A stretch of 64,000 bases of DNA, taken from Oceanispirochaeta sp. GTDB lineage: Bacteria; Spirochaetota; Spirochaetia; DSM-2461. Every line of letters starts with the position of its first letter. The stretch's first letter is position 1. Location of the stretch: assembly GCA_963663385.2 (NCBI GenBank), contig CAXXXD010000001.1, positions 64,001-128,000 on the forward strand, given 5' to 3'. Under the pieces are notes generated by a model that worked only from the letters and a program-made list of their open reading frames with translations, was not told the DNA's origin and ran no database searches. Shown here piece by piece: positions 48,894 through 64,000 of the stretch. A program made the translations under genes and the position numbers.

Positions 48894-49976
48894 ATGAAAG
48901 AGAAAACAAGGATACTGGTCGCCGGCTGCGGTGCCATGGGCCGTTCTCACAGCCTGGCTTACAGCAGACTGGAAGAGTTTGAAATTGTCGGGCTCGTCAG
49001 CCGCAATCCGGAAAGCCGGGAGGCTCTCGCCGGGGAACTGAACCTTTCCTGCCCCCTCTACAGTAACTATCAAACAGCGTTAAACGAACAGAGACCTGAC
49101 GCCGTGTCTATTAATACTCTGACCGACAGCCACTACAGCTATGCGAAAGCAGCATTGGAACAGGGATGCCATGTCTTTATGGAAAAGCCGGCGGCAGAAA
49201 CTGTCAGGGAAGCAGAAGATCTGATCCGGCTTGCCCGGAAGAAAAGCCGGGTGCTCCTGATCGGATACATTCTGCAGCATCACCCGGCCTGGCAGGAGTT
49301 TACCAGAGCGGCCCGTAACCTGGGCAGTCCGCTGGTCATGAGAATGAACCTGAACCAGCAATCCAGCGGCAGGGGCTGGGAAAAACACAAAAGCAAACTG
49401 GAAACCCTGTCGCCTCTGGTGGAATGCGGCGTCCATTATGTAGAGATCATGTGCCGCATGACTGGCTCACAGCCTCTCAGGGTCAGTGCGGCAGGAGCAC
49501 GGCTTACCGGGGAGATTCCGGAATCTTCCCATAATTACGGGCATATGCAGATAGAGTTTTCCGACGGTTCCATCGGCTGGTATGAATCAGGCTGGGGTCC
49601 CATGATGAGCCGGAATGCTTTTTTTATCAAGGATGTCTGCGGCCCCGGGGGAAGCGTCAGCCTTATCCCCTCTCCGAATAAAAGGCCCTATGAATCCAGT
49701 TCGCTTGATGATCATACAAGAACAGACTGCCTGGAAATACACAGAAGCAAACTGAACGACTGCGGTGATTTTGCCGGGAAGGACAGGATACACGAATTCA
49801 GTCCGGAAGAGTCTCCGGGGCATGACGGACTTTGCCTGCTTGAGCAGAGATTTTTCCTTAAGGTGATTCAGGAGGGTTTGGACCTCGGGGATCATCATAG
49901 AACCGTTGTCAACAGCCTGAGAATTGTTCTGGCTGCTGAAAAGTCAATCAGAACAGGAGAAACGGTGCCCCTGTAG
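48894..49976 (+). CDS. Gfo/Idh/MocA oxidoreductase
   Basis: GCGAMG, HVFMEKP and ECGVHY motifs; start ATG 48894. Confidence 0.9.
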   Translation: MKEKTRILVAGCGAMGRSHSLAYSRLEEFEIVGLVSRNPESREALAGELNLSCPLYSNYQTALNEQRPDAVSINTLTDSHYSYAKAALEQGCHVFMEKPAAETVREAEDLIRLARKKSRVLLIGYILQHHPAWQEFTRAARNLGSPLVMRMNLNQQSSGRGWEKHKSKLETLSPLVECGVHYVEIMCRMTGSQPLRVSAAGARLTGEIPESSHNYGHMQIEFSDGSIGWYESGWGPMMSRNAFFIKDVCGPGGSVSLIPSPNKRPYESSSLDDHTRTDCLEIHRSKLNDCGDFAGKDRIHEFSPEESPGHDGLCLLEQRFFLKVIQEGLDLGDHHRTVVNSLRIVLAAEKSIRTGETVPL

Positions 49977-50083
49977 TATCCATAGCAGACAATGGCACCG
50001 GGTACAGATATCTCACAGTCACTGAACAGTCAACAGCAGACCAGAAGTTTGACTCATCCTTAATGGGGAACTATTCTTGTATT

Positions 50084-50668
50084 ATGATAAAGAAATTCCT
50101 GTCCGTACTGAAAAAACGCGATTTGAAAATAAGGGATCTCTACAGGATTCAGGGGAAACGGGTTCAGATTGATATCAGGATTTCCAGCTATCAGGATTTT
50201 TTCAGTGACTGGGATTATTCTCCGATTAAAATGAGAGATCTTAACGATGACCTTTTTTCCTATCTTCTGGAATGCAGCATGGAGATTCCCCAGAAATACC
50301 CGCTGGATATCGTCCTTCATATACCTGAAGGAGTTAAAAACGAAAAAAAGGAACTGTCCAACAGAACCAGTTACAGGAACTATCTGCTGTATCGCCACCG
50401 CCTCTGCCTGCGGGAAAGGCAAAACAGCTATATCAGGATGGTGTGGTTCTTTCTATTCGGAGTTCTGTTTATCGGTATTGGATATTTCCTTGAAGGACAC
50501 GAAAGGTTCGCGGTCATAAAAATCCTTAAAGAAGGTTTTTTTATCGGAGGCTGGGTCCTTTTCTGGGAACTCTTTTCTTCGCTGTTCTTCAATATCAGGG
50601 AGTTGGACAAACGCATCTCAATGGTCAATCGACTGGTGAAAGCCGGCCTGGAATTCCATTATCACTGA
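50084..50668 (+). CDS. Hypothetical membrane protein (2 TM)
   Basis: FSDWDYSP..RDL motif; EGFFIGGWVLFWE; start 50084 inferred from the promoter position. Confidence 0.7.
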   Translation: MIKKFLSVLKKRDLKIRDLYRIQGKRVQIDIRISSYQDFFSDWDYSPIKMRDLNDDLFSYLLECSMEIPQKYPLDIVLHIPEGVKNEKKELSNRTSYRNYLLYRHRLCLRERQNSYIRMVWFFLFGVLFIGIGYFLEGHERFAVIKILKEGFFIGGWVLFWELFSSLFFNIRELDKRISMVNRLVKAGLEFHYH

Positions 50669-50827
50669 TTCGGAGCGGGAATCCCATTGTATTCGTAATG
50701 ATAATCAGCTCTGGTTCATCCTCTCAGATGCAGTATTATCTATGCATACCAGCCCCGGAGCCGGGGCGACAGCAGACTGGACAGGAGATATATCGCCGGC
50801 CATAATACCGGGACGAGGAACACCGGA

Positions 50828-52087
50828 ATGAAAAAGATTATTCAGAACACATTACTTGGTTCGGAAATTCAGGATATCCTGATTGAGGGGAGCAGAATTG
50901 CCGCTATAGGCTCCGGACTGGCAGCGGCTCATCCTGATGCAAGGATTATAGACGGCAGCGATACAGCAGTCTTCCCCTCTTTTATCAACGGGCATACACA
51001 CTCTCCCATGACCCTGCTCAGAGGAGCAGGGGACGACCTGGCTCTCAAGGAATGGCTGGAAGACTGCATGTGGCCCCTTGAAGCGCAATTTACAGATGAG
51101 GATTTCTACTGGGGCAACAAAATGGCCCTGATGGAAATGATCCGTACAGGGACCGGTTTTTTTAATGAAATGTACTGGAACCCGCACATTGCGCTGAAAG
51201 CCCTTGAAGGGGTTCCCCTTAAAGCTCGGATAAACTTTCCCGTAATGGACCTGATGGATCCGGATGAAGGAAAGAAGCAGTGGAAAAACTGCGAAGAATT
51301 TTTCAGAAAGACAACTGCACCTCCCGGTGTTCAGCTGGGGACTGTTCTTCACTCGGTCTATACAAACAGCAGGAAATCCCTAGAGTGGATCAGAGATTTC
51401 GCCGCAGAGAGAAACCTTCCCATCCATATTCATATATCTGAAACAGAAAGAGAGGTGAAGGACTGCATGGAAGCCCATGAAGGTCTCAGTCCTGTCGAAT
51501 ACCTCCACAGGCTGGGAGTCCTGTCGGAGCGGACTTTTGCGGCCCATACGGTCCACCTTTCGGATCGGGATTTGGAGATCCTGTCCGATACAGGAGTAAA
51601 TGTAATACATAACCCGGGATCCAATATGAAGCTTTCATCCGGAGTATTTCCCTACAGGGCACTGAAAGACAGAAACATACCGATCCTTCTGGGAACTGAC
51701 GGAGTCGCCTCAAACAATAACCTGGATATGCTGGAAGAGATGAAACTGGCGGCCCTGCTGCAGAAGGTGCATTCCGGGGACCCCACACTGATGACCGCTG
51801 AAGAGATTTTTACGATTGCGACACAGAAGGGCGCGGATCTGTTCGGTACAGGCGGAGGAGTTATTGAGGTTGGCAGGGAGGCGGATCTGATTCTGATGGA
51901 CCTGAAGTCCCCCGCTCTTTTTCCAACCTGGAATCTGATTTCCTCCATGGTTTACAGCGCTTCGGGCAGGGATGTGAAAACCCACATTTCAGCCGGTAAT
52001 GTTCTTATGGAGGACTATAAAATACCCGGCTATGAAGACGCTTTGGAGGGAGCGGCCCGCTGCTTCAACAGATTGAAATCCCTATAA
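50828..52087 (+). CDS. MTA/SAH deaminase-like amidohydrolase (paralog 1)
   Basis: NGHTH, HIHISET, AHTVH, HNPGSNMKL and GTDGVASNN motifs. Confidence 0.82.
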   Translation: MKKIIQNTLLGSEIQDILIEGSRIAAIGSGLAAAHPDARIIDGSDTAVFPSFINGHTHSPMTLLRGAGDDLALKEWLEDCMWPLEAQFTDEDFYWGNKMALMEMIRTGTGFFNEMYWNPHIALKALEGVPLKARINFPVMDLMDPDEGKKQWKNCEEFFRKTTAPPGVQLGTVLHSVYTNSRKSLEWIRDFAAERNLPIHIHISETEREVKDCMEAHEGLSPVEYLHRLGVLSERTFAAHTVHLSDRDLEILSDTGVNVIHNPGSNMKLSSGVFPYRALKDRNIPILLGTDGVASNNNLDMLEEMKLAALLQKVHSGDPTLMTAEEIFTIATQKGADLFGTGGGVIEVGREADLILMDLKSPALFPTWNLISSMVYSASGRDVKTHISAGNVLMEDYKIPGYEDALEGAARCFNRLKSL

Positions 52088-52116
52088 CTGGAACCGCTTC
52101 AATTAACTTCAATGGT

Positions 52117-52148
52117 TTCCGCCTGCTTCCCGGAGTAAACAGGCGGAA
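52117..52148. terminator. Hairpin between convergent genes (possible bidirectional terminator)
   Basis: ttccgcctg pairs with caggcggaa; U-tails are weak. Confidence 0.45.
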
Positions 52149-52168
52149 CGATTAACGGAGTGTATCGA

Positions 52169-52825
52169 TCATTTCCCCTGGCCGTAATGATTCCTGGCAA
52201 AATCCTGCATGGCGCGAATGTCTTCTTCCGAGATAAGCTTGGGAGTCCCGATAGCTCTGGCCATATAGTAGATCCGTGCGGATTTCTCCACTACAAAGAT
52301 ATTTTTCATGGCACCGGGGAAATCCGCTCCGACCACAACGGTCCCGTGATTGGGAATCATAACGGCATTTCTTTCGCCCAGGCCTTTAACGACATTCTCT
52401 GCCAGTTCGGGCGTTCCGGGCAGAGCATAGTCACAGTTGATAATCTTATCGCCGATGATCTGTACAAAATCTTCACTTATCCCGGGAAGATCTTCGTTGA
52501 GAACTCCGAAAACACTGGAATAGACCGGATGGGTATGAATAACGACATTCACATCCTTTCGGGCATTCATAATTGCAATATGAAAATTGAACTCGATTGA
52601 AGGTTTTCTATGACCGTCAACGACTTCGAAGTCCGAGTTCATTACAACAACATCCTCTTCCTTTATATCCGGGTAGGGCATTCCGCTCGGCTTGATATAA
52701 ATCAGGCCGGTTTCGGGATCTCGTGTACTGAGGTTCCCCCAGGTCCCTACGGTAAGTCCCTGATCAAGCATATTCATACCGGCATCAACAATTTCTTTTT
52801 TCAACGCTCTGGAAATTTTCGGCAT
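52169..52825 (-). CDS. Class II aldolase (FucA-like); likely methylthioribulose-1-P/5-deoxyribulose-1-P aldolase
   Basis: GTWGNLS, KPSG, PSIE..FH, HTHP and NHG motifs; divergent from the mtnA operon. Confidence 0.8.
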   Translation of the reverse strand: MPKISRALKKEIVDAGMNMLDQGLTVGTWGNLSTRDPETGLIYIKPSGMPYPDIKEEDVVVMNSDFEVVDGHRKPSIEFNFHIAIMNARKDVNVVIHTHPVYSSVFGVLNEDLPGISEDFVQIIGDKIINCDYALPGTPELAENVVKGLGERNAVMIPNHGTVVVGADFPGAMKNIFVVEKSARIYYMARAIGTPKLISEEDIRAMQDFARNHYGQGK

Positions 52826-52936
52826 TGTATTTCTCCTTGGTCTTTTATATCCAATACATTTATAAGAATTTTATCCTGCCTCTGTAACAGGCAAAGAGAA
52901 CAATTCTTCTCTAAATAGTAATAATACCCTCTTCCC

Positions 52937-52957
52937 TTCCTGTCAACCTGACAGGAA
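52937..52957. promoter_or_regulatory. Perfect palindrome, probable operator
   Basis: TTCCTGTCA-ACC-TGACAGGAA; contains a minus-strand TTGACA facing the aldolase gene. Confidence 0.6.
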
Positions 52958-53053
52958 ACCCATATCTGATTTATCCAACATAAATTAATAAAACCATGAT
53001 TTTAGCAAATATTATTTGACAACACAAACATTCAGTTATAACCTGAGCAATAT

Positions 53054-53863
53054 ATGTCTGAGGAATCAAACGATATTATGCCTAAAATTGCAAATTTGTC
53101 CGACATTTCAAAAACACGAAACAAGGCTCTCAAGAAACTCAAAGGAAGCAAGGGCCAGACTCTCAGCCATATGGCGCGGAAGAGGATTATCGAGTATATC
53201 AAAAAGAATGAGGTCCAGCCCAACGACGCCCTTCCTACTGAAGCTGCCTTTATGAAAATTCTGGATGCCAGCCGGCATACCGTAAGAGAAGCCCTGGTTC
53301 TGATGGAACAGGAAAACCTTATCTACAAGATTCAGGGAAAAGGGACATTCCTGAAAAAACGGCCGATTCATATTGAGAGCGGCCTGGAAAAGCTGGAAAG
53401 CATCACAGAAACGGTAGAAGGATATGATCTGACCCCGGGAACGCAGTGGATCGGCATAGAGATCAAGAATCCTACCGAACAGATGACCGAAGAGCTGAAT
53501 CTGACACCCGGAGAAAAAGTCATAACCTTTAAAAGGGTCAGAACCGCAAACGGGAACCTGGCTTCCTACTGTGTCGATACCATGCCCCTCAGATACTTTG
53601 AGACGATTCCTCATGAGATCAATGAGGAATCGCTCTTCTCCTATCTGGAGAAGAATCTGGGGATTCATATTGAGAGCGCTGTTACCTATCTTGTCCCCAC
53701 TCTCCCCACCGGAGAGATGACTCATGAACTGGGAGTCCCGCAGGATCAGCTCTTTCTTCTGCTTCAGCAAATCCACTTTGACAGCAAAGGAACCCCGATG
53801 ATTTTTTCCAATGATTATTTCCAGCCGGATATTTTTAAATTCAAAGTCAATAGAACACGTTGA
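53054..53863 (+). CDS. GntR family regulator (HutC/UTRA)
   Basis: LPTE, ASRHTVREAL and QGKGTF motifs; C-terminal UTRA with SLFSYLE. Confidence 0.9.
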   Translation: MSEESNDIMPKIANLSDISKTRNKALKKLKGSKGQTLSHMARKRIIEYIKKNEVQPNDALPTEAAFMKILDASRHTVREALVLMEQENLIYKIQGKGTFLKKRPIHIESGLEKLESITETVEGYDLTPGTQWIGIEIKNPTEQMTEELNLTPGEKVITFKRVRTANGNLASYCVDTMPLRYFETIPHEINEESLFSYLEKNLGIHIESAVTYLVPTLPTGEMTHELGVPQDQLFLLLQQIHFDSKGTPMIFSNDYFQPDIFKFKVNRTR

Positions 53864-53872
53864 GAGGTAGTG

Positions 53873-54931
53873 ATGAGCAAAATTATTTCGATGAAGTATG
53901 AAGAGGGCGTTTTAAAACTGATAGATCAGAGAAAACTCCCCGCAGAGTATGTCTATTTTGAGTGCAGGACTTATACGGAGGTTGAGTTTGCCATCAAGGA
54001 TATGGTTGTAAGGGGGGCTCCTGCCATCGGTGCGACCGCAGCCTACGGCGCACTTCTTGCTGCCCGTCAGTTTATCACCGATTATCCTGAGGATCGTTCC
54101 CGCTTTCTTTCAGAAATGGATAAGGCCCTCGATTTTCTGAATAACTCCAGACCCACAGCCGTCAACCTGATGTGGGCCGTAAAGAAAATGAAAGACTGCC
54201 TTGCCGCCAATGCGCAGGACCCGGATTCCCTTCTCATGGAAAAGATTCAGAGTCTTGCAGACAGCATCTTTGAGGAAGACAGGGAACTATGCATCAGCAT
54301 GGGACGACACGGTAACACGGTAATCCCCGAAGGAGCGACAATCCTGACCCACTGCAATACGGGGGCCCTGGCAGCGGCAGGACCCGGTACGGCTCTGGCA
54401 GTTGTACGGGAAGCCCACAATACGGGTAAGGGGATTTTCGTTTATGCTGATGAAACCCGTCCCAGAATCCAGGGCGGCCGTCTGACCGCCTGGGAACTGA
54501 TGCAGGAAAAGATCCCCTCCAAACTGATTGTGGACAGCACGGCGGCCACACTTATCCGCGACGGAAAAATCGATGTTATCCTTGTGGGTGCCGACCGGAT
54601 CGCCAACAATGGAGACGCCGCCAACAAGATCGGGACCTTTATGCTCTCGGTTCTGGCAAAAACCTATAATGTCCCCTTTTATATTGTAGCTCCGGTTACA
54701 ACCATTGATTTTGAGATGGAAAGCGGAGATGAAATTGAAATCGAAGAAAGGGATGCCTCGGAAATTACCCATATCAACGGGGTACAGATTGCTCCGGAAG
54801 GGATGGAAGTATACAATCCGGCCTTCGATGTAACACCCCATGAAAATATCACCGGTATTGTTACAGACCGGGGAATCATCTATCCGCCCTTCAAGGAGGG
54901 GATTGCAGACCTTAAGGAGTCTATAAAGTGA
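53873..54931 (+). CDS. mtnA: S-methyl-5-thioribose-1-phosphate isomerase
   Basis: DQRKLP, MVVRGAPAIG, SRPTAVNL, LTHCNTGALA, DETRP, GADRI and NPAFDVTP motifs. Confidence 0.95.
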   Translation: MSKIISMKYEEGVLKLIDQRKLPAEYVYFECRTYTEVEFAIKDMVVRGAPAIGATAAYGALLAARQFITDYPEDRSRFLSEMDKALDFLNNSRPTAVNLMWAVKKMKDCLAANAQDPDSLLMEKIQSLADSIFEEDRELCISMGRHGNTVIPEGATILTHCNTGALAAAGPGTALAVVREAHNTGKGIFVYADETRPRIQGGRLTAWELMQEKIPSKLIVDSTAATLIRDGKIDVILVGADRIANNGDAANKIGTFMLSVLAKTYNVPFYIVAPVTTIDFEMESGDEIEIEERDASEITHINGVQIAPEGMEVYNPAFDVTPHENITGIVTDRGIIYPPFKEGIADLKESIK

Positions 54932-56682
54932 GTTCTGCAGCCAATGCTATAGAAATCAGAGACCTTTCTTTCCGCTATAAAAGCGAAACCAGCGAAAAGA
55001 ATCCGCTTGCCCTGGATAATATCAACCTTGATATAAAGAAGGGCGAGTTCGTAGTCATTATGGGGCCAAGCGGCGCGGGAAAGTCCACCCTGGCCAACTG
55101 TCTCAACGGCCTTATCCCCCATTTTCAGCGCGGAGAGTATGAGGGCGAAGTAAAAGTCGATGAACTGATTGTTAAAAATGAGAAAGTCGGCCGCATGTCC
55201 AAAGAGATCGGCCTTGTTTTTCAGGACTTTGAAGCCCAGCTTTTTTCTACCAACACCATGCTGGAGCTGGCCTTCGGACCGGAAAACTTCGGAGTCCCCA
55301 GAGAGGAGATTCACAGACGGATTCTGGATGTCCTGAAAACAGTACAGCTTGAAGGGTTTGAGGAACGTCAGCCCTCCACCTTGTCGGGGGGACAGAAACA
55401 GCGACTGGCCATCGGATCCATACTGGCCACGGAACCCGAAATCATCTGTATGGATGAGCCCACTACCGACCTGGATCCTGTGGGGAAAATGGGAATCTTC
55501 AAGATTGCCCGGCACCTGCACTCCAAAAGTGAGTTCACCCTGCTGATTATTGAACACGAAACAGAAGAGGCTCTTCATGCGGACAGACTTATTCTGATGG
55601 AAAACGGTATCGTTCTCAAAGACGGCAGGCCCCGGGATATTCTGAAGGAAGTCGCCCTGACCGACAGAATCGGAATCCAGTCCCTTCAGGTGCCCAAGTT
55701 CTTCAAGGATCATCTGAAAGCTGAAACAGCCACTCTCCCCATGACTCCGGAGGAGGGATACGAAGCTTTTAACAAACTGGGAATTTCCATAGATGAGGAA
55801 GCTTATAACACAATCCTTAAAGCAGATGAAACCCGGGAGGCATCCTACGGTGAAGTTCTTATCGATGTCAAAGATCTGGTACATGTCTATCCCAACGGGA
55901 ACAAAGCGCTCAGGGGAGTCAGCATCCAGGTCCGGAAGGGAGAGTTCCTGGCTGTATTAGGGCATAACGGCAGCGGCAAGACCACCATGGTCAAACATTT
56001 CAACGGATTACTGTCTCCCAGTGAAGGGGACATCATCGTAAGAGACAAGAATACGAAGGAATCATCCATATTTGAAATCGGCAAAACGGTAGGTTATGTA
56101 TTCCAGAATCCCGATCATCAGATTTTCTCCGATACAGTATTCGAAGAGGTATCCTTCAGCCCCAAACTGAGAGGCTGCAGCAAAGAAGAGATCAGAGAAC
56201 GGGTAACGGAAGCCCTTAAAGCCGTTGGAATGGAGGGAACCGAAGAGGAAGATCCCTTCTCCATGACCAAAGGACAGAGACAGCGGATCGCGGTTGCCTC
56301 GGTACTGTCTGCCAAACCGGAAGTCATTATTCTGGATGAACCCACAACCGGACTGGATTACAAGGAACAGCGCCAGATGATGGAGCTTATCCGGAATCTG
56401 AACCAGAAGGGACACACCATTATCATGATTACCCATACCATGTGGGTCGTTGCCGAATACGCCCATAAAGTCGCTGTGGTTAAGGACGGTGAAATGAGTA
56501 TGTACGGCAGAACAAGAGATGTCTTCAAGGATGAGGACACCCTGATGGAATCCTATCTGAAAACCCCGCATATTGTTAATTTAAGCAACAAATTAGGCAA
56601 GACCGTTCTCTCTGTAGATGAGATGAAAAGCTGTGTAAACGCAGCCGCCGAAAAGACGGTGTCCGCAGGAATAGGAGAATAA
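54928..56682 (+). CDS. ECF transporter fused double ATPase (A-A')
   Basis: Two ABC domains: GPSGAGKST/LSGGQKQR and GHNGSGKTT/FQNPDHQ. Confidence 0.9.
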   Translation: MSSAANAIEIRDLSFRYKSETSEKNPLALDNINLDIKKGEFVVIMGPSGAGKSTLANCLNGLIPHFQRGEYEGEVKVDELIVKNEKVGRMSKEIGLVFQDFEAQLFSTNTMLELAFGPENFGVPREEIHRRILDVLKTVQLEGFEERQPSTLSGGQKQRLAIGSILATEPEIICMDEPTTDLDPVGKMGIFKIARHLHSKSEFTLLIIEHETEEALHADRLILMENGIVLKDGRPRDILKEVALTDRIGIQSLQVPKFFKDHLKAETATLPMTPEEGYEAFNKLGISIDEEAYNTILKADETREASYGEVLIDVKDLVHVYPNGNKALRGVSIQVRKGEFLAVLGHNGSGKTTMVKHFNGLLSPSEGDIIVRDKNTKESSIFEIGKTVGYVFQNPDHQIFSDTVFEEVSFSPKLRGCSKEEIRERVTEALKAVGMEGTEEEDPFSMTKGQRQRIAVASVLSAKPEVIILDEPTTGLDYKEQRQMMELIRNLNQKGHTIIMITHTMWVVAEYAHKVAVVKDGEMSMYGRTRDVFKDEDTLMESYLKTPHIVNLSNKLGKTVLSVDEMKSCVNAAAEKTVSAGIGE

Positions 56683-56686
56683 AGTT

Positions 56687-57481
56687 ATGGATATGTTTTT
56701 ATACCTCGACAAGGATACCTTTCTGCACCGTCTTGATCCGAGAACAAAGATGTTTGTCATGCTCTGCTCTTTTATCATCGCCCTCAGCTTCACATCACTC
56801 TATGTTCTGGCTGGACTCTCGATAGTTATCATTGCCTATGGGATGGCAGGACGGGTTCTGAGCAATCTGAAACGCATCTGGTTCATACTTGTTATGATAT
56901 TTCTGTTTTCAATTGTCCTCTGGTCGCTTACCTTCGGCGGCCCGACAAAACTCTGGGGCCCCATTTCCCTGGAAGGGCTGGAGTACGGAATTATGACGGG
57001 AATCCGTTTCGATATCATGATCGTATCGGGGATGATCTTTCTCAGTGCGTCCAAGATTGAAGAGATATCCCTGGGACTTGTAAAGCTGAAACTGCCCTAC
57101 CGCGGCGCCTTTGCGTTTTCCACCGCCATCCGCCTGGTCCCCATGATCGTTGCGACCAGCTACACCATTGCGGAAGCCCAGAAATCCCGGGGGCTGGATC
57201 TTGAATCGGGAAACTTTTTTCAGAGGGCCAGAAAATTTGTTCCCCTTCTGGTTCCCACACTGATTTCGGTAATCCGGGGTACAAATGTGTTTGCCATGGC
57301 ACTGGAATCCAAAGGCTTTGGCTATTCAGAAAAAAGAACCAACTATATGGATATCCATTTTAAAAAAAGTGATGGCATGGTATTCACAATATCATTTATT
57401 CTAACAGCAGGAATGATTGTCGCCCATATCATGGGACTTGATGACACTCTGTATTCATGGATCAAAAGTCTCCGGATCTAG
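56687..57481 (+). CDS. ECF transporter T component
   Basis: LHRLDPRTK, AQKSRG and AMALESKGF motifs. Confidence 0.9.
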   Translation: MDMFLYLDKDTFLHRLDPRTKMFVMLCSFIIALSFTSLYVLAGLSIVIIAYGMAGRVLSNLKRIWFILVMIFLFSIVLWSLTFGGPTKLWGPISLEGLEYGIMTGIRFDIMIVSGMIFLSASKIEEISLGLVKLKLPYRGAFAFSTAIRLVPMIVATSYTIAEAQKSRGLDLESGNFFQRARKFVPLLVPTLISVIRGTNVFAMALESKGFGYSEKRTNYMDIHFKKSDGMVFTISFILTAGMIVAHIMGLDDTLYSWIKSLRI

Positions 57482-57544
57482 TCCGGATTCTTTCTGATAG
57501 ATAAAGACTTTGATAATCAGATAAATATCTGAGGAGGAAAGAAA

Positions 57545-58345
57545 GTGAAAGACGTTTTCAAGATGTGGAAAGAGACAAAAATGGTTGTTCTCGTCGCCCT
57601 TTGTGCGGGTATCTACGCAGCGGTACTGATTCCTTTTAAGGGATTTGTAATCATCCCCGGTTTTACAGAGTTCAGACCCGCCAGCGGCCTTCCCATTATG
57701 ATGGGACTTCTCTTCGGCCCCGCAGGAGCATGGGGAGCGGCTATCGGTAACCTGATCGGAGACTTTTTCGGCTCCCTGGGAATCGGCAGTACATTCGGTT
57801 TTGTCGGAAACTTTCTGTTTGCCTATGTCCCCTACAAAGTATGGAGAAACCTGGGAATCATGAAAGAGGATGAACTGGAACCCAGCCTCAAGTCAGGAAA
57901 ACAGATCGGAGCTTTTGTACTGGTTTCTTTCCTCGGAGCGGCAGCCTGTGCCCTCTTTATAGCCTGGGGTCTGGACCTCCTTCAGATGGTTCCCTTTGCC
58001 GCGCTGGGAACAATCATTACAGCCAACAACTTTATCCCTTCCGTCGTTCTTGGTATCCCTCTTACTCTGGTTCTCTATCCCAGAATCAAGAAGTGGCACC
58101 TTCTCTGGACGGATATCATGGCTGAAGAAGATATTCCCGTAATCAATGCCAAATCAAGAATTTCCGGGATCCTTATGACCATCTTTACAGTCGGCGGAAT
58201 TGTGGGCGGTCTGTTTTTCGCTCTCGGAGGCGGACAGGAAATGTTTGCAGCCGGTTTTGGCGCAGGCGGTGCAGGAAACATCGGCGTAGCCGTTATAGCC
58301 GGTATCGGTTCAATCGGTATCCTCATTGCAGGTATTATCGAATAA
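57545..58345 (+). CDS. ECF transporter S component (QueT/MtsT-like), probably for MTA/SAM-related nucleosides
   Basis: IPGFTEFRPA, LLFGPAGAWGAAIGNLIGD and FGFVGNF motifs; operon context. Confidence 0.78.
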   Translation: MKDVFKMWKETKMVVLVALCAGIYAAVLIPFKGFVIIPGFTEFRPASGLPIMMGLLFGPAGAWGAAIGNLIGDFFGSLGIGSTFGFVGNFLFAYVPYKVWRNLGIMKEDELEPSLKSGKQIGAFVLVSFLGAAACALFIAWGLDLLQMVPFAALGTIITANNFIPSVVLGIPLTLVLYPRIKKWHLLWTDIMAEEDIPVINAKSRISGILMTIFTVGGIVGGLFFALGGGQEMFAAGFGAGGAGNIGVAVIAGIGSIGILIAGIIE

Positions 58346-58450
58346 TCTGTTTACCAGCAGACTCCCGGGCAGTCCGGGGGGCTGTTATTTATTTTTCAGG
58401 CTGGTCGCAAGCGGAGCTTGCTTCCCGCCTATGCAACCTAGGAGACTCCA

Positions 58451-59638
58451 TTGAAAAAAGATGATTTTAAATTCGACACCCTTTCCATACATGCCGGAGG
58501 TAAGCACAGGAATCCCGAAAACGCTCTCAATCCTCCGATTTTTCAGACATCCACCTTTGTATTCGAAAGTACGGACCATGTGGATGATGTTATGTCCTTC
58601 AAGAGCGATGACTATGTTTACACAAGGGGAAACAACCCGACATTGAGGCTCCTGGAACAGAGAATGGCCGTTCTGGAAAACGGCAGCTCCGCAGTTGCCT
58701 TTGCTTCGGGGATGGCGGCTATCAGCTCCGTTCTCTTCTCTCTCACAAAACCCGGTGATAATATTCTGGTTCACAAGACTCTCTACGGTTCGTCCTACAA
58801 TGTGGTGACCTCACTGCTTCCCAAATACAATGTTACCAGCCGGATCCACGATCTGTCCAATACAGAAAATCTGGGAGATGCCGTTGATGAGAACACAAAA
58901 GTTATCTATTTTGAAACCCCCAGCAATCCCAATCTTTCCATTATTGATATTGAAAAAATCACCTCCTTTGCCAAAGGAAGAGGTATAAAAGTCGTTATAG
59001 ATAATACATTTGCCACCCCCTACTTTCAGCGGCCCCTGGAAATGGGCGTCGATGTGGTGGTTCACTCGGCTACAAAGTACATCTGCGGCCACGGCGATGT
59101 GGTAGCCGGCATTGCGGTTGCCAGGGATGATAAATACATTCAGACTCTGAAGTTCGATTATATGTGCGAGTTCGGCGGCGTCATGAGCCCCTTCAACGCC
59201 TGGCTCCTCCTGAGAGGCCTCAAAACCCTGGGAGTCAGAATGAGACAGCACGAACAGAATGCCATGGCAATAGCCCGCTACCTGGAAAAACATCCCAAGG
59301 TTACCTCCGTTCTGTATCCGGGACTGGAGTCTTTCCCGGGTCACAAAGTAGCCGCCAGGCAGATGAGCGGGTTCGGCGCCATGATCAGTTTCGAGGTGGA
59401 CGGCGGTCTGGATAAGGCTAAAAAAGTTGTCAACAGCGTCAAACTGGCCCAGCTGGCTGTAAGCCTGGGAGACTGTGAAACCCTGATCGAACTGCCCGCA
59501 GCCATGACCCACAGGGGCTATGATAAAGCCAAACTGGCGGAATTCGGCCTGACAGAGAGTATGGTCAGGATCTCTGCCGGACTGGAAGACGTGGAAGATC
59601 TCATCAAAGATATCGATCAGGCCCTGGCGCAGATCTGA
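58451..59638 (+). CDS. PLP-dependent Cys/Met metabolism enzyme, methionine gamma-lyase-like
   Basis: PIFQTSTF, YTRGNNPT, SGMAAI, ETPSNP, DNTFATP, HSATKY (PLP Lys) and AVSLGDCETLI..PAAMTH motifs. Confidence 0.82.
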   Translation: MKKDDFKFDTLSIHAGGKHRNPENALNPPIFQTSTFVFESTDHVDDVMSFKSDDYVYTRGNNPTLRLLEQRMAVLENGSSAVAFASGMAAISSVLFSLTKPGDNILVHKTLYGSSYNVVTSLLPKYNVTSRIHDLSNTENLGDAVDENTKVIYFETPSNPNLSIIDIEKITSFAKGRGIKVVIDNTFATPYFQRPLEMGVDVVVHSATKYICGHGDVVAGIAVARDDKYIQTLKFDYMCEFGGVMSPFNAWLLLRGLKTLGVRMRQHEQNAMAIARYLEKHPKVTSVLYPGLESFPGHKVAARQMSGFGAMISFEVDGGLDKAKKVVNSVKLAQLAVSLGDCETLIELPAAMTHRGYDKAKLAEFGLTESMVRISAGLEDVEDLIKDIDQALAQI

Positions 59639-59732
59639 CAAACAGATATTCATCCGGTACGGCAGTATCCCGTTCCGGATACCCCCCGCTGCAGTCAACC
59701 GGCGGCAGTATTGATCACCATGGAGGAATATA

Positions 59733-61031
59733 GTGAAAATTCTGATACAGGGAGGACAAATCCTGACAATGGCTCAGGATGAACCCGAAATACTACAGAC
59801 GGATATCGGTATCGACAACGACAGGATTGCCTTTATCGGCGCTCCTTCAGCCGGATTCAAAGCAGACAAAACAATAGATGCCTCGGACACCCTGATAATG
59901 CCCGGTCTCGTAAATGCCCATACGCATATATCCATGTCCCTTCTGCGCAGCTACGCCGATGATCTTCCCTTCTGGGAATGGCTCTTTGAAAGAATTATGC
60001 CCGTTGAAGAGAACATGACCTCCGAATTTGCCTACAACGGGGCCCGTCTGAGCCTGATTGAGATGATAAAGAGCGGAACCACCACCTTTGCTGACATGTA
60101 TTTTTTTATGGACAGGGTCGCCCAGGCGGTGGAAGAGAGCGGTGTCAGAGCCAATCTGTCGCGGGGCGCGACTTTCATCAATGGCGACAGCGACCTGGAT
60201 AAACTGGATGAATCCGAAGAGTTTTTTACTAAGTGGAACGGCAGAGCCGATGGCCGTATTAAAGTGGATATTGCCCCGCACGCCCCCTATACCTGCCCTC
60301 CCAAATACATAAAACTCTGCGGAGAACTGGCCCGGAAGCTGGGAACCAACATTCATATCCACCTGTCCGAAAGCCGCAAGGAGGTTGAGGACAGCAGAAA
60401 GGAACACGGGAAATCGCCCATTCAGCATGTGCATGATCTGGGACTTTTTGATTCCCGTACCTATGCGGCCCACTGTGTCCATATTTCCGAAGACGATATA
60501 AAAATCATGGCGGAAAAGGGTGTTACAGCAGTAAACAATCCCACAAGCAACTTCAAACTGGCCAATGGATTCGCCCCTGTGACAAAACTCCTTGAAGCAG
60601 GTGTGAATGTGGCTCTCGGAACAGACGGTCCCGGCTGCAATAACAACACCAATATGTTTGAAGAGATTAACCTGGCGGCTCTGGCCAACAAGGCTGTCGA
60701 GGAAAATCCAACAGTAGTTCCGGCTTATACAGCTCTTAAAATGGCCACTGTTAACGGAGCGAAGGCTTTAGGACTGGAGGATGAAATCGGTACTCTGGAA
60801 AAGGGAAAGAAAGCCGATATGATACTGATTGACCTGAAAAAGGCTCATTTCTATCCCCGGTATAACCTGATATCCTCCCTGGTTTATTCTGCACAGGGAT
60901 CAGATGTAAAAACGGTACTCTGTAACGGCAGGATTCTTATGGAAGATTACAAACTGCTTACTCTGGATGAAGAAACAGTATTCAGGGAAGCAGAAATATC
61001 AGCCCGTAAAATGACAGGAGAGATGGCATGA
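59733..61031 (+). CDS. mtaD: 5'-methylthioadenosine/S-adenosylhomocysteine deaminase
   Basis: PGLVNAHTH, APHAPYT, HIHLSES, AHCVH and GTDG motifs; adjacent to the phosphorylase. Confidence 0.85.
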   Translation: MKILIQGGQILTMAQDEPEILQTDIGIDNDRIAFIGAPSAGFKADKTIDASDTLIMPGLVNAHTHISMSLLRSYADDLPFWEWLFERIMPVEENMTSEFAYNGARLSLIEMIKSGTTTFADMYFFMDRVAQAVEESGVRANLSRGATFINGDSDLDKLDESEEFFTKWNGRADGRIKVDIAPHAPYTCPPKYIKLCGELARKLGTNIHIHLSESRKEVEDSRKEHGKSPIQHVHDLGLFDSRTYAAHCVHISEDDIKIMAEKGVTAVNNPTSNFKLANGFAPVTKLLEAGVNVALGTDGPGCNNNTNMFEEINLAALANKAVEENPTVVPAYTALKMATVNGAKALGLEDEIGTLEKGKKADMILIDLKKAHFYPRYNLISSLVYSAQGSDVKTVLCNGRILMEDYKLLTLDEETVFREAEISARKMTGEMA

Positions 61032-61795
61032 GAAAAGCAATAATCGGCGGAACCGGAGTTTATGATACCCCGGGAATGACCCGCACAGAAACAGTTAATA
61101 CCAAATACGGTAATGTTGAGGTGGATATTGTAAAATGGGAGAATGAGGAAATTGTCTTTCTGGCAAGACACGGAAAAGGCCATTCGGTCCCCCCCCATCT
61201 GATCAACTACAGAGCCAATATGATGGCGCTCAAACAGCTGGATGTCAGTCATATCTATGCAACCTGTGCCGTAGGTTCCTGCAACAGAAACTATGCCCCC
61301 GGAGATACTGTGATTATCAGAGATTTTCTGGATTTCACCAAAATCCGCCCGGTAACGTTTTTTGACGGAGAAGAAGGTGTCAAGCATACCGATATGTCAG
61401 ATCCCTACTGTAAAAACCTGAGGGCCCTATACAGCAGGGAGGCCGCTAAAGAGGGCATTGAGATCAAGGGGGATGCCGTATACGTCTGCACCGAAGGACC
61501 CCGGTTTGAAACAGCCGCCGAAATCAGAATGTATGAAAAGATGGGCGGGGATGTTGTGGGAATGACCAATGTTCCGGAAGTGCAGCTGGCCAAGGAGCTG
61601 GGGATATGCTATGCCGCCGTAGGGCTGATTACAAACTGGTGTACCGGCTTCGTGAGCGATGACATTGTGATCCATGACATTATGGCAACCATGGCAGCCA
61701 ACAAGGATGCCATTACAAAGCTTTTTCTGTCTATTCTCTCAAATGATCCGAAGCGGGATAAATGCAGCTGTCGGAATGCCGTTATGGATATGTAA
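61028..61795 (+). CDS. mtnP: MTAP-family phosphorylase, likely S-methyl-5'-thioinosine phosphorylase
   Basis: IIGGTG, ARHG, NYRAN, EGPRFETAAE and VVGMT motifs; LITN in place of TDYD. Confidence 0.88.
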   Translation: MRKAIIGGTGVYDTPGMTRTETVNTKYGNVEVDIVKWENEEIVFLARHGKGHSVPPHLINYRANMMALKQLDVSHIYATCAVGSCNRNYAPGDTVIIRDFLDFTKIRPVTFFDGEEGVKHTDMSDPYCKNLRALYSREAAKEGIEIKGDAVYVCTEGPRFETAAEIRMYEKMGGDVVGMTNVPEVQLAKELGICYAAVGLITNWCTGFVSDDIVIHDIMATMAANKDAITKLFLSILSNDPKRDKCSCRNAVMDM

Positions 61796-62044
61796 CACCC
61801 CCCTGAAGATCCCCGGGGCATTCAGATCAACCAGGATCGGTTTCGAATGCTTTGGGGATTGGAATGACTGTTAAGTATTTATCGGAATAACAGAAGATAA
61901 ATACATACAAAAAAAGACATTTAATGTAAATAAATTAGAACAAAATCTTCTTATTCATGAATATTTATGTATAATATTGATGATATAGTCATTTTTGAGA
62001 TTATTGCGATAATCGATTATACTAACTGGTAAGGAGATTTATCC

Positions 62045-63235
62045 ATGAGCAGAGAACTCATCCGTCATCTATCAAGTGAACTGGCGGCCCTTCATGAACA
62101 GGGTCTGTATAAATCCGAACGGATTATCACAACGCCTCAGCAGGCGGATATTAAAGTAAAAGACGGCGGAGAAGTCCTGAACTTCTGCGCGAATAACTAC
62201 CTGGGGCTGTCGAATAATCCCGAGTTGATAAAAGCGGCCCAGAAGTCATTGGAAGAGTACGGCTACGGCCTGTCCTCTGTTCGGTTTATTTGCGGAACCC
62301 AGACCATCCATAAGGAACTGGAAGCCAGGATCAGCTCTTTTCTGGGAACGGAGGATACCATACTCTACTCCTCCTGCTTCGATGCCAACGGCGGTCTGTT
62401 TGAAACCCTGCTGGGTCCGGAAGACGCCATAATCAGCGATGCCCTTAACCATGCCAGTATCATCGACGGCGTCAGGCTCTGTAAAGCCCGGCGTTTCCGC
62501 TACGCCAATAACGATATGACCGAACTGGAAACCAGACTGAAAGAAGCCCGTACAGCCCGTTTCCGCCTGATTGCCACAGACGGCGTGTTCTCCATGGACG
62601 GCACAATAGCCAACCTGAAAGCCATCTGCGATCTGGCAGACAAATATGACGCCCTGGTTATGGTGGACGACTCTCATGCCGTCGGGTTTATGGGAGAAAC
62701 CGGCGCGGGAACCCCCGAGTTCTGCGGAGTGAAAGACCGGGTGGATATTATCACCGGAACCCTGGGCAAAGCTTTGGGCGGAGCCTCGGGAGGATACACG
62801 TCCGGAAAAAAAGAGATCATCAGCTGGCTCAGACAGCGCTCAAGACCATATCTGTTCTCAAACTCTCTGGCTCCTGTCATGACAGCCACGGCTATCCGCA
62901 CCCTGGAACTGCTCCAGGAATCAAGCGAACAGAGGGACCGGCTGTTCTCTCACACCCGTCTGTTCCGCCGTTCCCTGAAAGAAGCCGGGTTCAATATTGT
63001 GGAAGGAGAACACCCTATCGTTCCCCTGATGCTGGGAGACGCGGCTCTGGCTGTAAAAATGGCGGGGATTCTCCTGAACAAGGGAATCTATGCCATCGGA
63101 TTCTCCTACCCGGTGGTCCCCATGGGAGCCGCCCGTATCCGTTTCCAGATGTCCGCAGGCCATACGGAGGAGCAGGTAAAATATGCCATTGAAAAGATTA
63201 TCGAAACCGGGAAGGATCTGGAGATAATAAAATGA
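62045..63235 (+). CDS. kbl: Glycine C-acetyltransferase (2-amino-3-ketobutyrate CoA ligase)
   Basis: [32 protein letters not shown] and [12 protein letters not shown] motifs. Confidence 0.95.
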
Positions 63236-64000
63236 AAGCACTGTCCAAACTGAAAAAAGAAGAAGGCCTCTGGATGATAGACGCTCCCGAACCGGAGTAC
63301 GGTCCCAATGACCTTCTTATTAAAATCAAGATTACCGCCATTTGCGGTACGGATGTTCACATCTACAACTGGGACCACTGGTCACAGCAGACAATCCCTG
63401 TTCCCATGATTACCGGTCATGAGTTTGTGGGAACCGTTGAAGCCATGGGAAGCGAAGTGGCCGGATTCAAAATCGGCGACCGGGTTTCCGGCGAAGGCCA
63501 TATTACCTGCGGTCACTGCCGGAACTGCCGGGCCGGAAAGCGGCACCTCTGCCGTAATACGGAAGGAATCGGGGTAAACAGACAGGGCTGCTTTGCGGAG
63601 TACCTGGTTATGCCCGCCTACAATGCCTTCAAGCTGGATGATTTTATCTCCGACGAAACAGCGGCCATTTTTGATCCCTTCGGCAACGCCGTTCATACGG
63701 CCCTCTCCTTTGACCTTGTGGGAGAGGATGTGCTGATCACCGGAGCCGGTCCCATCGGGATAATGGCGGCATCCGTTGCCAGACATGCCGGAGCCCGTTA
63801 TGTCATTATTACGGACGTAAATGAATACCGTCTGAACCTGGCCCGTCAGATGGGCGCTACCCGGGCTGTCAACATACAGACAGACAAACTGGAAGATGTA
63901 ATGAGCGAGCTTCATATGCTGGAAGGTTTTGATGTGGGACTGGAAATGTCCGGGAATGTCCGGGCTCAGCATCAGATGTTCAGGATGATGAATAACGGCG
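63232..64000 (+). CDS. tdh: L-threonine 3-dehydrogenase, truncated by the window end
   Basis: Manual translation: [15 protein letters not shown]...[13 protein letters not shown]...GHEFVG...[17 protein letters not shown]...[14 protein letters not shown] overlap with kbl. Confidence 0.95.

Follow-up and report, generated by a model that had tools for sequence, protein, structure and literature searches.

S-Adenosylhomocysteine (SAH) inhibits methyltransferases and must be removed. How is this accomplished in a bacterium that has none of the recognized enzymes for the task? The question is raised by a locus in the 64,000-nucleotide stretch of Oceanispirochaeta sp. DNA analyzed here (the window; positions 64,001 to 128,000 of contig CAXXXD010000001.1 in assembly GCA_963663385.2). 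The genome that contains the window and a dozen genomes of Spirochaetes and Clostridia have no recognizable Pfs, LuxS, or AhcY, yet they have in common an operon that could remove SAH. In the window, this operon (52169–61795) encodes a regulator, an energy-coupling factor (ECF) importer, and five enzymes, namely the isomerase MtnA, a class II aldolase, a phosphorylase of the methylthioadenosine phosphorylase (MTAP) family, an MtaD-like deaminase, and a pyridoxal 5'-phosphate (PLP) enzyme that resembles methionine γ-lyase. We propose, with a probability of about one in two, that the locus encodes a transporter-linked, deaminase-first form of the dihydroxyacetone phosphate (DHAP) shunt for the adenosyl by-products of S-adenosylmethionine (SAM), which would replace the missing Pfs/LuxS and AhcY in this organism. 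Every enzymatic step, as well as the transported ligand, is read here from homology and genomic context. A wider claim is advanced more tentatively: the five-enzyme module may be a third, undescribed SAH disposal route that permits the loss of both Pfs/LuxS and AhcY in free-living bacteria, with the importer adding the ability to feed on nucleosides.

The host is a free-living spirochaete whose 5.3 Mb genome is assembled in 4 contigs and is 98.13% complete. Here and throughout, families were assigned from Pfam and NCBIfam profile scores relative to the model cut-offs, and solved relatives were identified by sequence comparison with the PDB. Searches of the whole genome found no AhcY, no LuxS, and no Pfs, the sole weak match to the Pfs model being a DeoD purine nucleoside phosphorylase (PNP). 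An assembly gap was considered as the cause of the missing pfs and luxS and was rejected. In the congener G043, luxS-pfs (L108, 8607–10066) sits between blocks that are syntenic with those flanking C2:1155079–1155261 in the present genome, where they are 182 bases apart, indicating that the absence is real; the site looks like a clean loss here, unless G043 has gained the pair. The genome encodes a split MetH, and neither MetE nor spermidine synthase was found in it. Since no spermidine synthase was found, 5'-methylthioadenosine (MTA) is perhaps a minor endogenous by-product. An earlier note on this DNA recognized the shunt genes and missed the genome-wide absence of AhcY, Pfs, and LuxS, which points to SAH as a substrate beside or instead of MTA.

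Comparison with other genomes indicates that the module is enriched in those that have no other known means of SAH removal. The S component of the importer has 2768 relatives, and 461 genomic places were confirmed among species representatives. Of these, the 80 best loci were compared by tblastn with the window proteins and 19 of them were examined gene by gene; many of the 19 are cut by contig ends. Among the 18 genomes with a PLP-type cluster, AhcY is found in 4, Pfs above its cut-off in 2, and LuxS in 1, while 12 have none of the three; one genome with such a cluster (G006) has only a 50.5-bit Pfs-like match. By comparison, AhcY is present in 16 of the 18 genomes that have an ECF homologue only or a more distant version of the cluster. 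Within the order of the window (38 genomes), the S component is found in 6 genomes, and both AhcY and Pfs are missing from 5 of these, including G041 (99% complete); the sixth, G043, contains Pfs and LuxS. Both enzymes are missing from 3 of the 32 S-negative genomes of the order (G062, G064, and G066, which are 71%, 90%, and 73% complete). The Brassicibacter family (9 genomes) has no AhcY at all, Pfs in 2 genomes, and a lyase of 73–75% identity in 7. SAH is the only one of the three adenosyl by-products of SAM (SAH, MTA, and 5'-deoxyadenosine) with an amino-acid moiety on which a Cys/Met-family PLP enzyme could work. This property, together with the enrichment of the module where SAH enzymes are missing, leads to the proposal that SAH passes through the module.

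A survey of gene neighborhoods, which the earlier note had suggested, reveals that the shunt genes recur in Spirochaetes and Clostridia among the 80 loci compared. An orthologue of the PLP enzyme (66–93% identity) is encoded in 18 of the 80, again from Spirochaetes and Clostridia, and the carriers include Brassicibacter mesophilus (L031), Caldanaerobacter (L033), and Halanaerobium (L034, L037). The 19 loci examined gene by gene contain the phosphorylase in 19 cases, the PLP enzyme in 18, the aldolase, GntR, and MtnA in 14 each, and MtaD in 12, with gntR-mtnA-ecfA-ecfT-mtnP-S-ald-plp-mtaD as the typical order. The recurrence of the same gene set in operon order in both groups indicates that the arrangement is not due to chance. 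The nearest public locus, from Spirochaetales, has an S component with 93% identity. Spirochaete and clostridial copies are 63–75% identical and the module is present in 3 of the 11 genomes of the window's genus, which suggests horizontal spread. In loci from Chloroflexi the cluster is more distant and the PLP enzyme is missing, and many loci from Rubrobacter, Synergistetes, and NC10 contain the transporter alone. The Halanaerobium locus L037 (1463–6394) also has genes for an amino-acid-type ABC transporter, a class I/II aminotransferase, and a lactate-racemase-like protein of the LarA family directly upstream of ECF-mtnP-S-plp.

The enzymes are also found without the importer. Two genomes of the Brassicibacter family (G080 and G077) have an operon of mtaD-mtnA-mtnP-plp-ald without any ECF gene, and this retention of the PLP enzyme indicates that it belongs to the pathway and not to the transporter. 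In G076 (L106, 11235–19831), the genes after mtaD-mtnP-plp encode a nucleoside ABC transporter of the PnrA/Bmp type, a further PNP-family phosphorylase, a regulator of the DeoR family, and an MtnA-like isomerase. The locus also encodes a short-chain dehydrogenase and a DUF985 cupin, and by its gene content it is another arrangement of the same pathway. Judged from these variants, the enzymes are the core of the system and the transporter is an accessory.

The PLP enzyme (58451–59638, plus strand; 395 aa) is a Cys_Met_Meta_PP protein (PF01053, 487.4 bits). Its best solved relatives are the methionine γ-lyases 6egr and 7bqw (~389 bits) and its best NCBIfam model is methionine γ-lyase TIGR01328, with a score of 491 that lies below the cut-off of 549.7; models of O-acetyl/O-succinyl-homoserine sulfhydrylases also match, at ~394 bits. 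The fold family, the length, the conserved PLP-lysine motif HSATKY that is expected of a γ-lyase, and most active-site stretches are common to the window enzyme and the methionine γ-lyases of Citrobacter freundii (6egr), Fusobacterium nucleatum (7bqw), and Pseudomonas putida (1gc0). In contrast to those enzymes, the window protein scores under the family cut-off and has YGS and YTRGNNPT where 6egr and 7bqw have YGC and YTRLGNPT, so that Cys is changed to Ser and RLGN to RGNN. The Cys of the Tyr-Gly-Cys motif is a hallmark of methionine γ-lyase; the window enzyme has Ser instead, and so do 18 of 18 linked orthologues, in all of which YGS[ST] and RGNNPT are invariant. The canonical YGC is found in three lyase genes near divergent clusters (L018, L022, L023). 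Canonical copies coexist with the variant in the same genomes, and two lyase copies may occur together, as in G013 (73% and 45% identity). By these motifs and scores, the PLP enzyme is a distinct, conserved methionine-γ-lyase-like subfamily, and the existence of a separate conserved subfamily suggests a substrate other than methionine.

The identity of the purine base that the operon handles is suggested by the phosphorylase (61028–61795, plus strand; PF01048, 144.9 bits). The earlier note had pointed to an Asn in place of the Asp of adenine-specific enzymes at the purine site, and alignment confirms this. Asn203, in the motif GLITNWCTGF, stands opposite the first Asp of 'vtDyD' in the solved archaeal MTAPs 1v4n, 2a8y, and 9vs8 and shares a column with the Asn of 'vvNpaag' in 3ozb (MAFFT alignment, via a Chloroflexi relative). 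3OZB is the methylthioinosine phosphorylase of Pseudomonas aeruginosa, and an Asn at this site marks specificity for 6-oxopurines. The same column is Asn in 34 of 34 phosphorylase open reading frames from the 80 ECF-linked loci; by sequence, these frames can be sorted into a TNW type, an INW type, and a PNP-like SNM type. The score of the window protein against the MTAP model TIGR01694 (256.2) is under the cut-off of 274.85, whereas that against the S-methyl-5'-thioinosine phosphorylase model NF006599 is a narrow pass (224.5 vs 223), although with fewer bits than TIGR01694. The enzyme is predicted to be specific for a 6-oxopurine, that is, a 5'-substituted inosine. As the sole MTAP-family gene of the genome (a single match), in which there is neither Pfs nor MtnK, it is the enzyme that would supply the 5-substituted ribose-1-phosphate on which a DHAP shunt depends. 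Two phosphorylases, of the INW and PNP-like SNM types, are encoded in each of L012 and L021, and a second IF-2B-family gene (~29% identity to MtnA) lies inside five clusters (L012, L016, L021, L019, and L039). Such paralogue pairs hint at parallel branches for different substrates.

In the proposed order, deamination precedes phosphorolysis. The MtaD-like TRZ/ATZ-type amidohydrolase (59733–61031, plus strand; PF01979, 278.5 bits) has MTA/SAH deaminases as its closest solved relatives, and the best PDB matches are 4f0r (an MTA/SAH deaminase by name; 293.9 bits), Tm0936 (1p1m/2plm; 272), and 4gbd (270.9). We propose that this enzyme converts the adenine of MTA, 5'-deoxyadenosine, or SAH to hypoxanthine. 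Searching the literature for residues of Tm0936 that contact the carboxylate of homocysteine gave nothing usable for a residue-level argument on acceptance of SAH. A deaminase-first, 6-oxopurine route is well supported at the level of sequence by the homologies of the two enzymes. The succession of import, deamination, phosphorolysis, isomerization, and cleavage to DHAP that the earlier note laid out is retained as the best reading of homology and context, given the 34 of 34 Asn residues and the exchange of importers in G076; what it left unexplained is the PLP enzyme.

The remaining two enzymes would complete the shunt. MtnA (53870–54931, plus strand) scores well above the cut-off of its model (TIGR00512, 444.4 vs 279; PF01008, 281.8 bits) and its orthologues in related clusters are 57–66% identical, as expected of the 5-substituted ribose-1-phosphate isomerase of the DHAP shunt. 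The class II (metal-dependent) aldolase (52169–52825, minus strand; PF00596, 164.2 bits) is divergent from the plus-strand row. Among solved structures, 6btd is the closest to it (143.9 bits), against 132.8 for the fuculose-phosphate aldolase 4c24 and 97 for E. coli FucA (1fua), and it keeps Glu78 (Glu76 in 6btd), H97-x-H99, and the later His-Gly metal motif. 6BTD is cited in the structure paper of the 5-deoxyribulose-1-phosphate aldolase DrdA (PMC6079011), and DrdA-type aldolases are described there as taking various aldehydes. No NCBIfam model is matched above its cut-off and the top names are fuculose-phosphate aldolase and ribulose-5-phosphate epimerase. The score margin over 4c24 is thin, so that the placement of this enzyme rests mainly on context: 14 of the 19 loci, which span two phyla, have a linked homologue, as do the five-gene operons of G080 and G077. 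Class II aldolases number 8 paralogues in the genome. It is proposed to split 5-substituted ribulose-1-phosphates to DHAP and an aldehyde. Assignment as an MtnB dehydratase, which the earlier note had named as an outcome that would overturn its reading, was rejected, the match to the MtnB model being confined to the N-terminal half (59.5 vs 137).

Canonical methionine salvage, in turn, appears to be absent. The earlier note reported no mtnB, mtnC, mtnD, or mtnK, which holds at the locus and, by profile searches, across the genome: there is no match to MtnK, no MtnC, and no acireductone dioxygenase (ARD/MtnD), and the best score for the MtnB model anywhere in the genome is 71.2 bits, so that none of the four is found above its cut-off.

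Import of the substrate is attributed to a dedicated ECF system whose A, A', T, and S components are encoded together, with the A-T-S order kept in most of the 80 loci. The two ATPase domains are fused (54928–56682, plus strand; TIGR04520, 496.4 vs 315; TIGR04521, 488.2 vs 330) and are followed on the same strand by the transmembrane T component (56687–57481; PF02361 CbiQ, 80.8 bits) and a QueT-family S component (57545–58345; PF06177, 67.8 vs 33.7 bits, residues 15–178). The S component is proposed to bind a 5'-substituted purine nucleoside. In G076, the nucleoside ABC transporter of the PnrA/Bmp type stands beside the enzymes instead of an ECF system, and this use of an unrelated nucleoside importer supports a nucleoside substrate. 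Loci with the ECF genes only (L020, L042, L051, L058, L067) have no enzyme neighbors in common, and the transporter family at large therefore gives no extra clue to the ligand. The QueT domain stops near residue 178, and beyond it the S component carries a Gly/Ala-rich hydrophobic C-terminal extension (residues ~190–266) that is present in most relatives of ~265–275 aa, with G218, G222, and A226 invariant in an alignment of 30 sequences.

A transporter of this kind has been anticipated. The original prediction of MtaT is said to have come from Rodionov in 2009, and the corresponding TCDB entry presumably stems from the Caldanaerobacter lineage, in which L033 is a carrier of the full cluster. 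TCDB lists MtaT as the ECF 'Methylthioadenosine (MTA) family' (3.A.1.33), which PMC3654945 presents as a dedicated ECF system with methylthioadenosine predicted from genome context; its likeness to the window transporter is drawn from the family name. Our literature searches turned up no measured substrate for the MtaT-type ECF family.

A pathway can be assembled from these parts (all steps hypothetical), and its shunt portion accords with what is established about the enzyme families. The ECF transporter would import 5'-substituted adenosines, and endogenous by-products would join at the deaminase step. The MtaD-like deaminase would convert adenine to hypoxanthine, after which the Asn-type phosphorylase would free hypoxanthine and a 5-substituted ribose-1-phosphate. 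MtnA would isomerize the latter to the ribulose-1-phosphate, and the class II aldolase would cleave this to DHAP and an aldehyde. With 5'-deoxyadenosine as the starting nucleoside the aldehyde would be acetaldehyde, and with MTA it would be 2-(methylthio)acetaldehyde. In the case of SAH, the aldehyde produced by the aldolase would retain homocysteine, and the PLP enzyme would remove the homocysteine part, either by γ-elimination to 2-oxobutyrate, ammonia, and a thiol or by γ-replacement with sulfide, which would regenerate homocysteine. Alternatively, the PLP enzyme might act earlier, on SAH or S-inosylhomocysteine. The GntR/UTRA regulator would govern the operon. We put the SAH branch, with the lyase handling the homocysteine part, at roughly even odds on the present comparisons.

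A narrower alternative, in line with the earlier note, is that the operon scavenges MTA and 5'-deoxyadenosine only, with SAH handled otherwise (for example, deaminated and excreted) and the PLP enzyme acting as an ordinary methionine or homocysteine γ-lyase that shares its regulation with sulfur and nucleoside catabolism. The full set of shunt enzymes is present, the best solved relatives of the PLP protein are indeed methionine γ-lyases at ~389 bits, canonical YGC lyases are also encoded close to three divergent clusters (L018, L022, and L023), the TCDB family is named for methylthioadenosine, and some genomes without AhcY, Pfs, and LuxS also lack the module, so that another route for SAH is possible. 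This alternative, the main rival of our proposal, nevertheless seems less likely, as neither MTA nor 5'-deoxyadenosine offers an amino acid to a lyase, the lyase stays in the enzyme operon where the transporter has been lost, and the linked enzymes form a separate YGS subfamily that occurs beside canonical copies and falls under the γ-lyase cut-off. Moreover, spermidine synthase was not found in the genome, and the alternative would leave SAH disposal in a 98%-complete genome unexplained. Were it to hold, the locus would be a neat variation on the DHAP shunt of a kind to be expected.

Other functions for the PLP enzyme are considerably less probable. It might carry out γ-elimination on SAM itself to give MTA, 2-oxobutyrate, and ammonia, with the MTA then consumed by the shunt. 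Such SAM catabolism would account for a γ-lyase-type enzyme together with MTA-processing enzymes, and a sulfonium is a good leaving group; we regard it as improbable, since it would not explain the handling of SAH in genomes without AhcY, Pfs, and LuxS, our literature searches gave no Cys/Met-family enzyme with such an activity, and SAM is unstable and scarce outside cells. Slightly more doubtful still is a role in sulfur salvage as in Rhodospirillum, in which the enzyme would be a sulfhydrylase that joins methanethiol, derived from 2-(methylthio)ethanol, to activated homoserine. The sulfhydrylase models do match at ~394 bits, a zinc alcohol dehydrogenase is encoded in four clusters (L030, L031, L033, and L039), and methanethiol-based salvage after the shunt is published (PMC10986504). 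The γ-lyase models score ~100 bits above the sulfhydrylase models, however, the length of 395 aa is that of a lyase, and no methanethiol-releasing gene was found in the examined clusters, the genome not having been searched for a nitrogenase-like methylthio-alkane reductase. That the genes are unrelated neighbors, with a fuculose- or ribulose-type sugar aldolase and no common pathway, is barely credible: the top NCBIfam names of the aldolase and the 8 class II aldolase paralogues of the genome would fit, but the sugar-aldolase matches all lie under their cut-offs and the aldolase keeps its linkage in 14 of 19 loci from two phyla and in the G080 and G077 operons.

The proposal that the module processes SAH and other SAM by-products must itself be set against several observations that weigh on the other side. 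G062, G064, and G066 have neither AhcY and Pfs nor the module; G078 and G081, of the Brassicibacter family, have neither the lyase nor a known SAH enzyme. G023 and G027 (Peptoniphilus koenoeneniae, L051) are without AhcY, LuxS, and Pfs above its cut-off and have a lyase homologue of only 41–46% identity, while the three S-positive genomes of genus g6, within the window's order, have a canonical YGC-type lyase (44–45%) or none at the threshold. Genomes without the known SAH enzymes and without the module indicate that another SAH route, or excretion of S-inosylhomocysteine, is possible. Conversely, the cluster coexists with Pfs/LuxS or AhcY in G043, G002, G004, G009, and G016. Most of the genomes compared are metagenome-assembled genomes of unstated completeness, and relatives are not independent of one another. 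On the enzyme side, the operon deaminase lies below the NCBIfam cut-offs throughout (PRK06038, 518.1/609; PRK07228, 394.4/522; PRK15493, 302.7/779), the margin of 6btd over 4c24 for the aldolase is only 11 bits, and no solved or characterized MTAP-family enzyme is known to accept S-inosylhomocysteine.

Many parts of the system resemble known ones. In the DHAP shunt or 5-deoxyribose salvage, which uses MtnP or MtnK with MtnA and Ald2 in Rhodospirillum and extraintestinal E. coli and DrdK-DrdI-DrdA in Bacillus thuringiensis, an isomerase with a class II aldolase likewise leads to DHAP and an aldehyde. Entry into the window pathway differs, as it would proceed through a deaminase and an Asn-type phosphorylase, whereas the known forms use Pfs with a kinase or an adenine-type MtnP. 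Compared with the E. coli shunt operon, which has MtnR, the window has the ECF importer and a GntR/UTRA regulator, and it adds the γ-lyase-like PLP enzyme as an integral member. The MTA deaminase and methylthioinosine phosphorylase (3OZB) of Pseudomonas aeruginosa share deamination as the first step (PMC6302742) and the Asn at the same aligned site; these genes feed ordinary methionine salvage, and no ECF importer, aldolase, or lyase is reported to accompany them. In Methanocaldococcus jannaschii, DadD first deaminates 5'-deoxyadenosine, MTA, and SAH, and MTIP is a promiscuous phosphorylase that acts on the inosine forms (PMC6302742, PMC10978960). In that organism a homologue of AhcY, an enzyme missing from the window's genome, cleaves S-inosylhomocysteine, and ribulose-1-phosphate is directed to aromatic amino acids, in contrast to the aldol cleavage proposed here. 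If the SAH branch is real, the module would do the same job as the activated methyl cycle (Pfs with LuxS, or AhcY), namely SAH removal, through unrelated enzymes; its carbon would finish up in DHAP and 2-oxobutyrate (or, with γ-replacement, in homocysteine) and not in ribose-derived 4,5-dihydroxy-2,3-pentanedione (DPD) or adenosine.

These precedents bear on how new the locus is. The earlier note knew of no characterized example of a regulated shunt with a dedicated ECF transporter, a claim that is partly overtaken by published work: MtaT is listed in TCDB, clusters of phosphorylase, isomerase, and aldolase, some with transporters, were described in 2018 (PMC6079011), a regulated catabolic DHAP-shunt operon with a transporter has been characterized in E. 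coli (PMC10986504, PMC12632272), and deaminase-first routes in Pseudomonas and Methanocaldococcus are reviewed in PMC6302742. In the searched literature, from which subscription journals were mostly outside the scope, there was no γ-lyase-like member of such a module, no link to the loss of Pfs, LuxS, or AhcY, and no SAH route via phosphorolysis, aldolase, and γ-lyase. The comparison points to a locus that is less new than the earlier note held and to a testable, potentially important extension of the known shunt. If the proposal is true, it would add a new branch to the metabolism of SAM by-products, provide a function for a distinct γ-lyase subfamily and for a long-predicted ECF transporter family, and alter reconstructions of the methyl cycle for genomes derived from metagenomes.

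The operon is compact, and all nine genes listed in the earlier note are present as described, with families assigned by the Pfam and NCBIfam profiles. Spacing on the plus strand is tight, with 4-base overlaps between mtnA and ecfA and between mtaD and mtnP and gaps of 4–105 bases elsewhere. The first gene of the plus-strand row encodes a GntR/HutC-type regulator (53054–53863; PF07702 UTRA, 98 bits; PF00392 helix-turn-helix, 47.4 bits), a homologue of which is located ahead of mtnA in 14 of the 19 loci. Between this gene and the aldolase gene, a perfect 9-base inverted repeat, TTCCTGTCA-ACC-TGACAGGAA (52937–52957), was read by eye, and it is partly kept in the congener G041 as TTTTTGTCAATCTGAAAG; it is a candidate operator on its sequence and position. 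A repeat search with a minimum length of 10 found no inverted repeats of at least 10 bases in this divergent intergenic region. The sequence TATTTGACA upstream of the GntR gene is common to the window and G041. Just 3' of the S gene, a consensus scan identified a GC-rich hairpin followed by a T-run (58362–58386, plus strand), which may be an internal terminator or attenuator that divides the operon into import and catabolic halves. Promoter and terminator scans in general were near chance, with 19 promoter sites vs 15.3 expected from shuffled sequence and 18 terminators vs 13.2. An Rfam riboswitch search of 49900–62200 at E values up to 1 gave zero matches, and hence no SAM or SAH riboswitch.

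The coordinates given in the earlier note leave out a second MtaD-family amidohydrolase (50828–52087, plus strand; 419 aa; PF01979, 216 bits) that adjoins the aldolase gene. This protein is a paralogue of the operon deaminase (~37–40% identity) and matches PRK06038 (396.6) and the 5'-deoxyadenosine deaminase model PRK07228 (273.6), both under the cut-offs. A copy with 80% identity adjoins the aldolase likewise in the congener G041 (L107), whereas in the other clusters compared no gene of its own was found for it. It may be a second nucleoside deaminase with another substrate preference, and its membership in the system is uncertain. Farther upstream, an open reading frame of 201 aa (50063–50668, plus strand) has a central hydrophobic segment and no Pfam or NCBIfam match. 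Directly downstream of the operon, at 62045–63999 on the plus strand, are kbl, for glycine C-acetyltransferase (656.6 bits), and tdh, for L-threonine 3-dehydrogenase (446.4 bits), the latter overrunning the window end; this pair is probably a separate threonine-catabolism unit.

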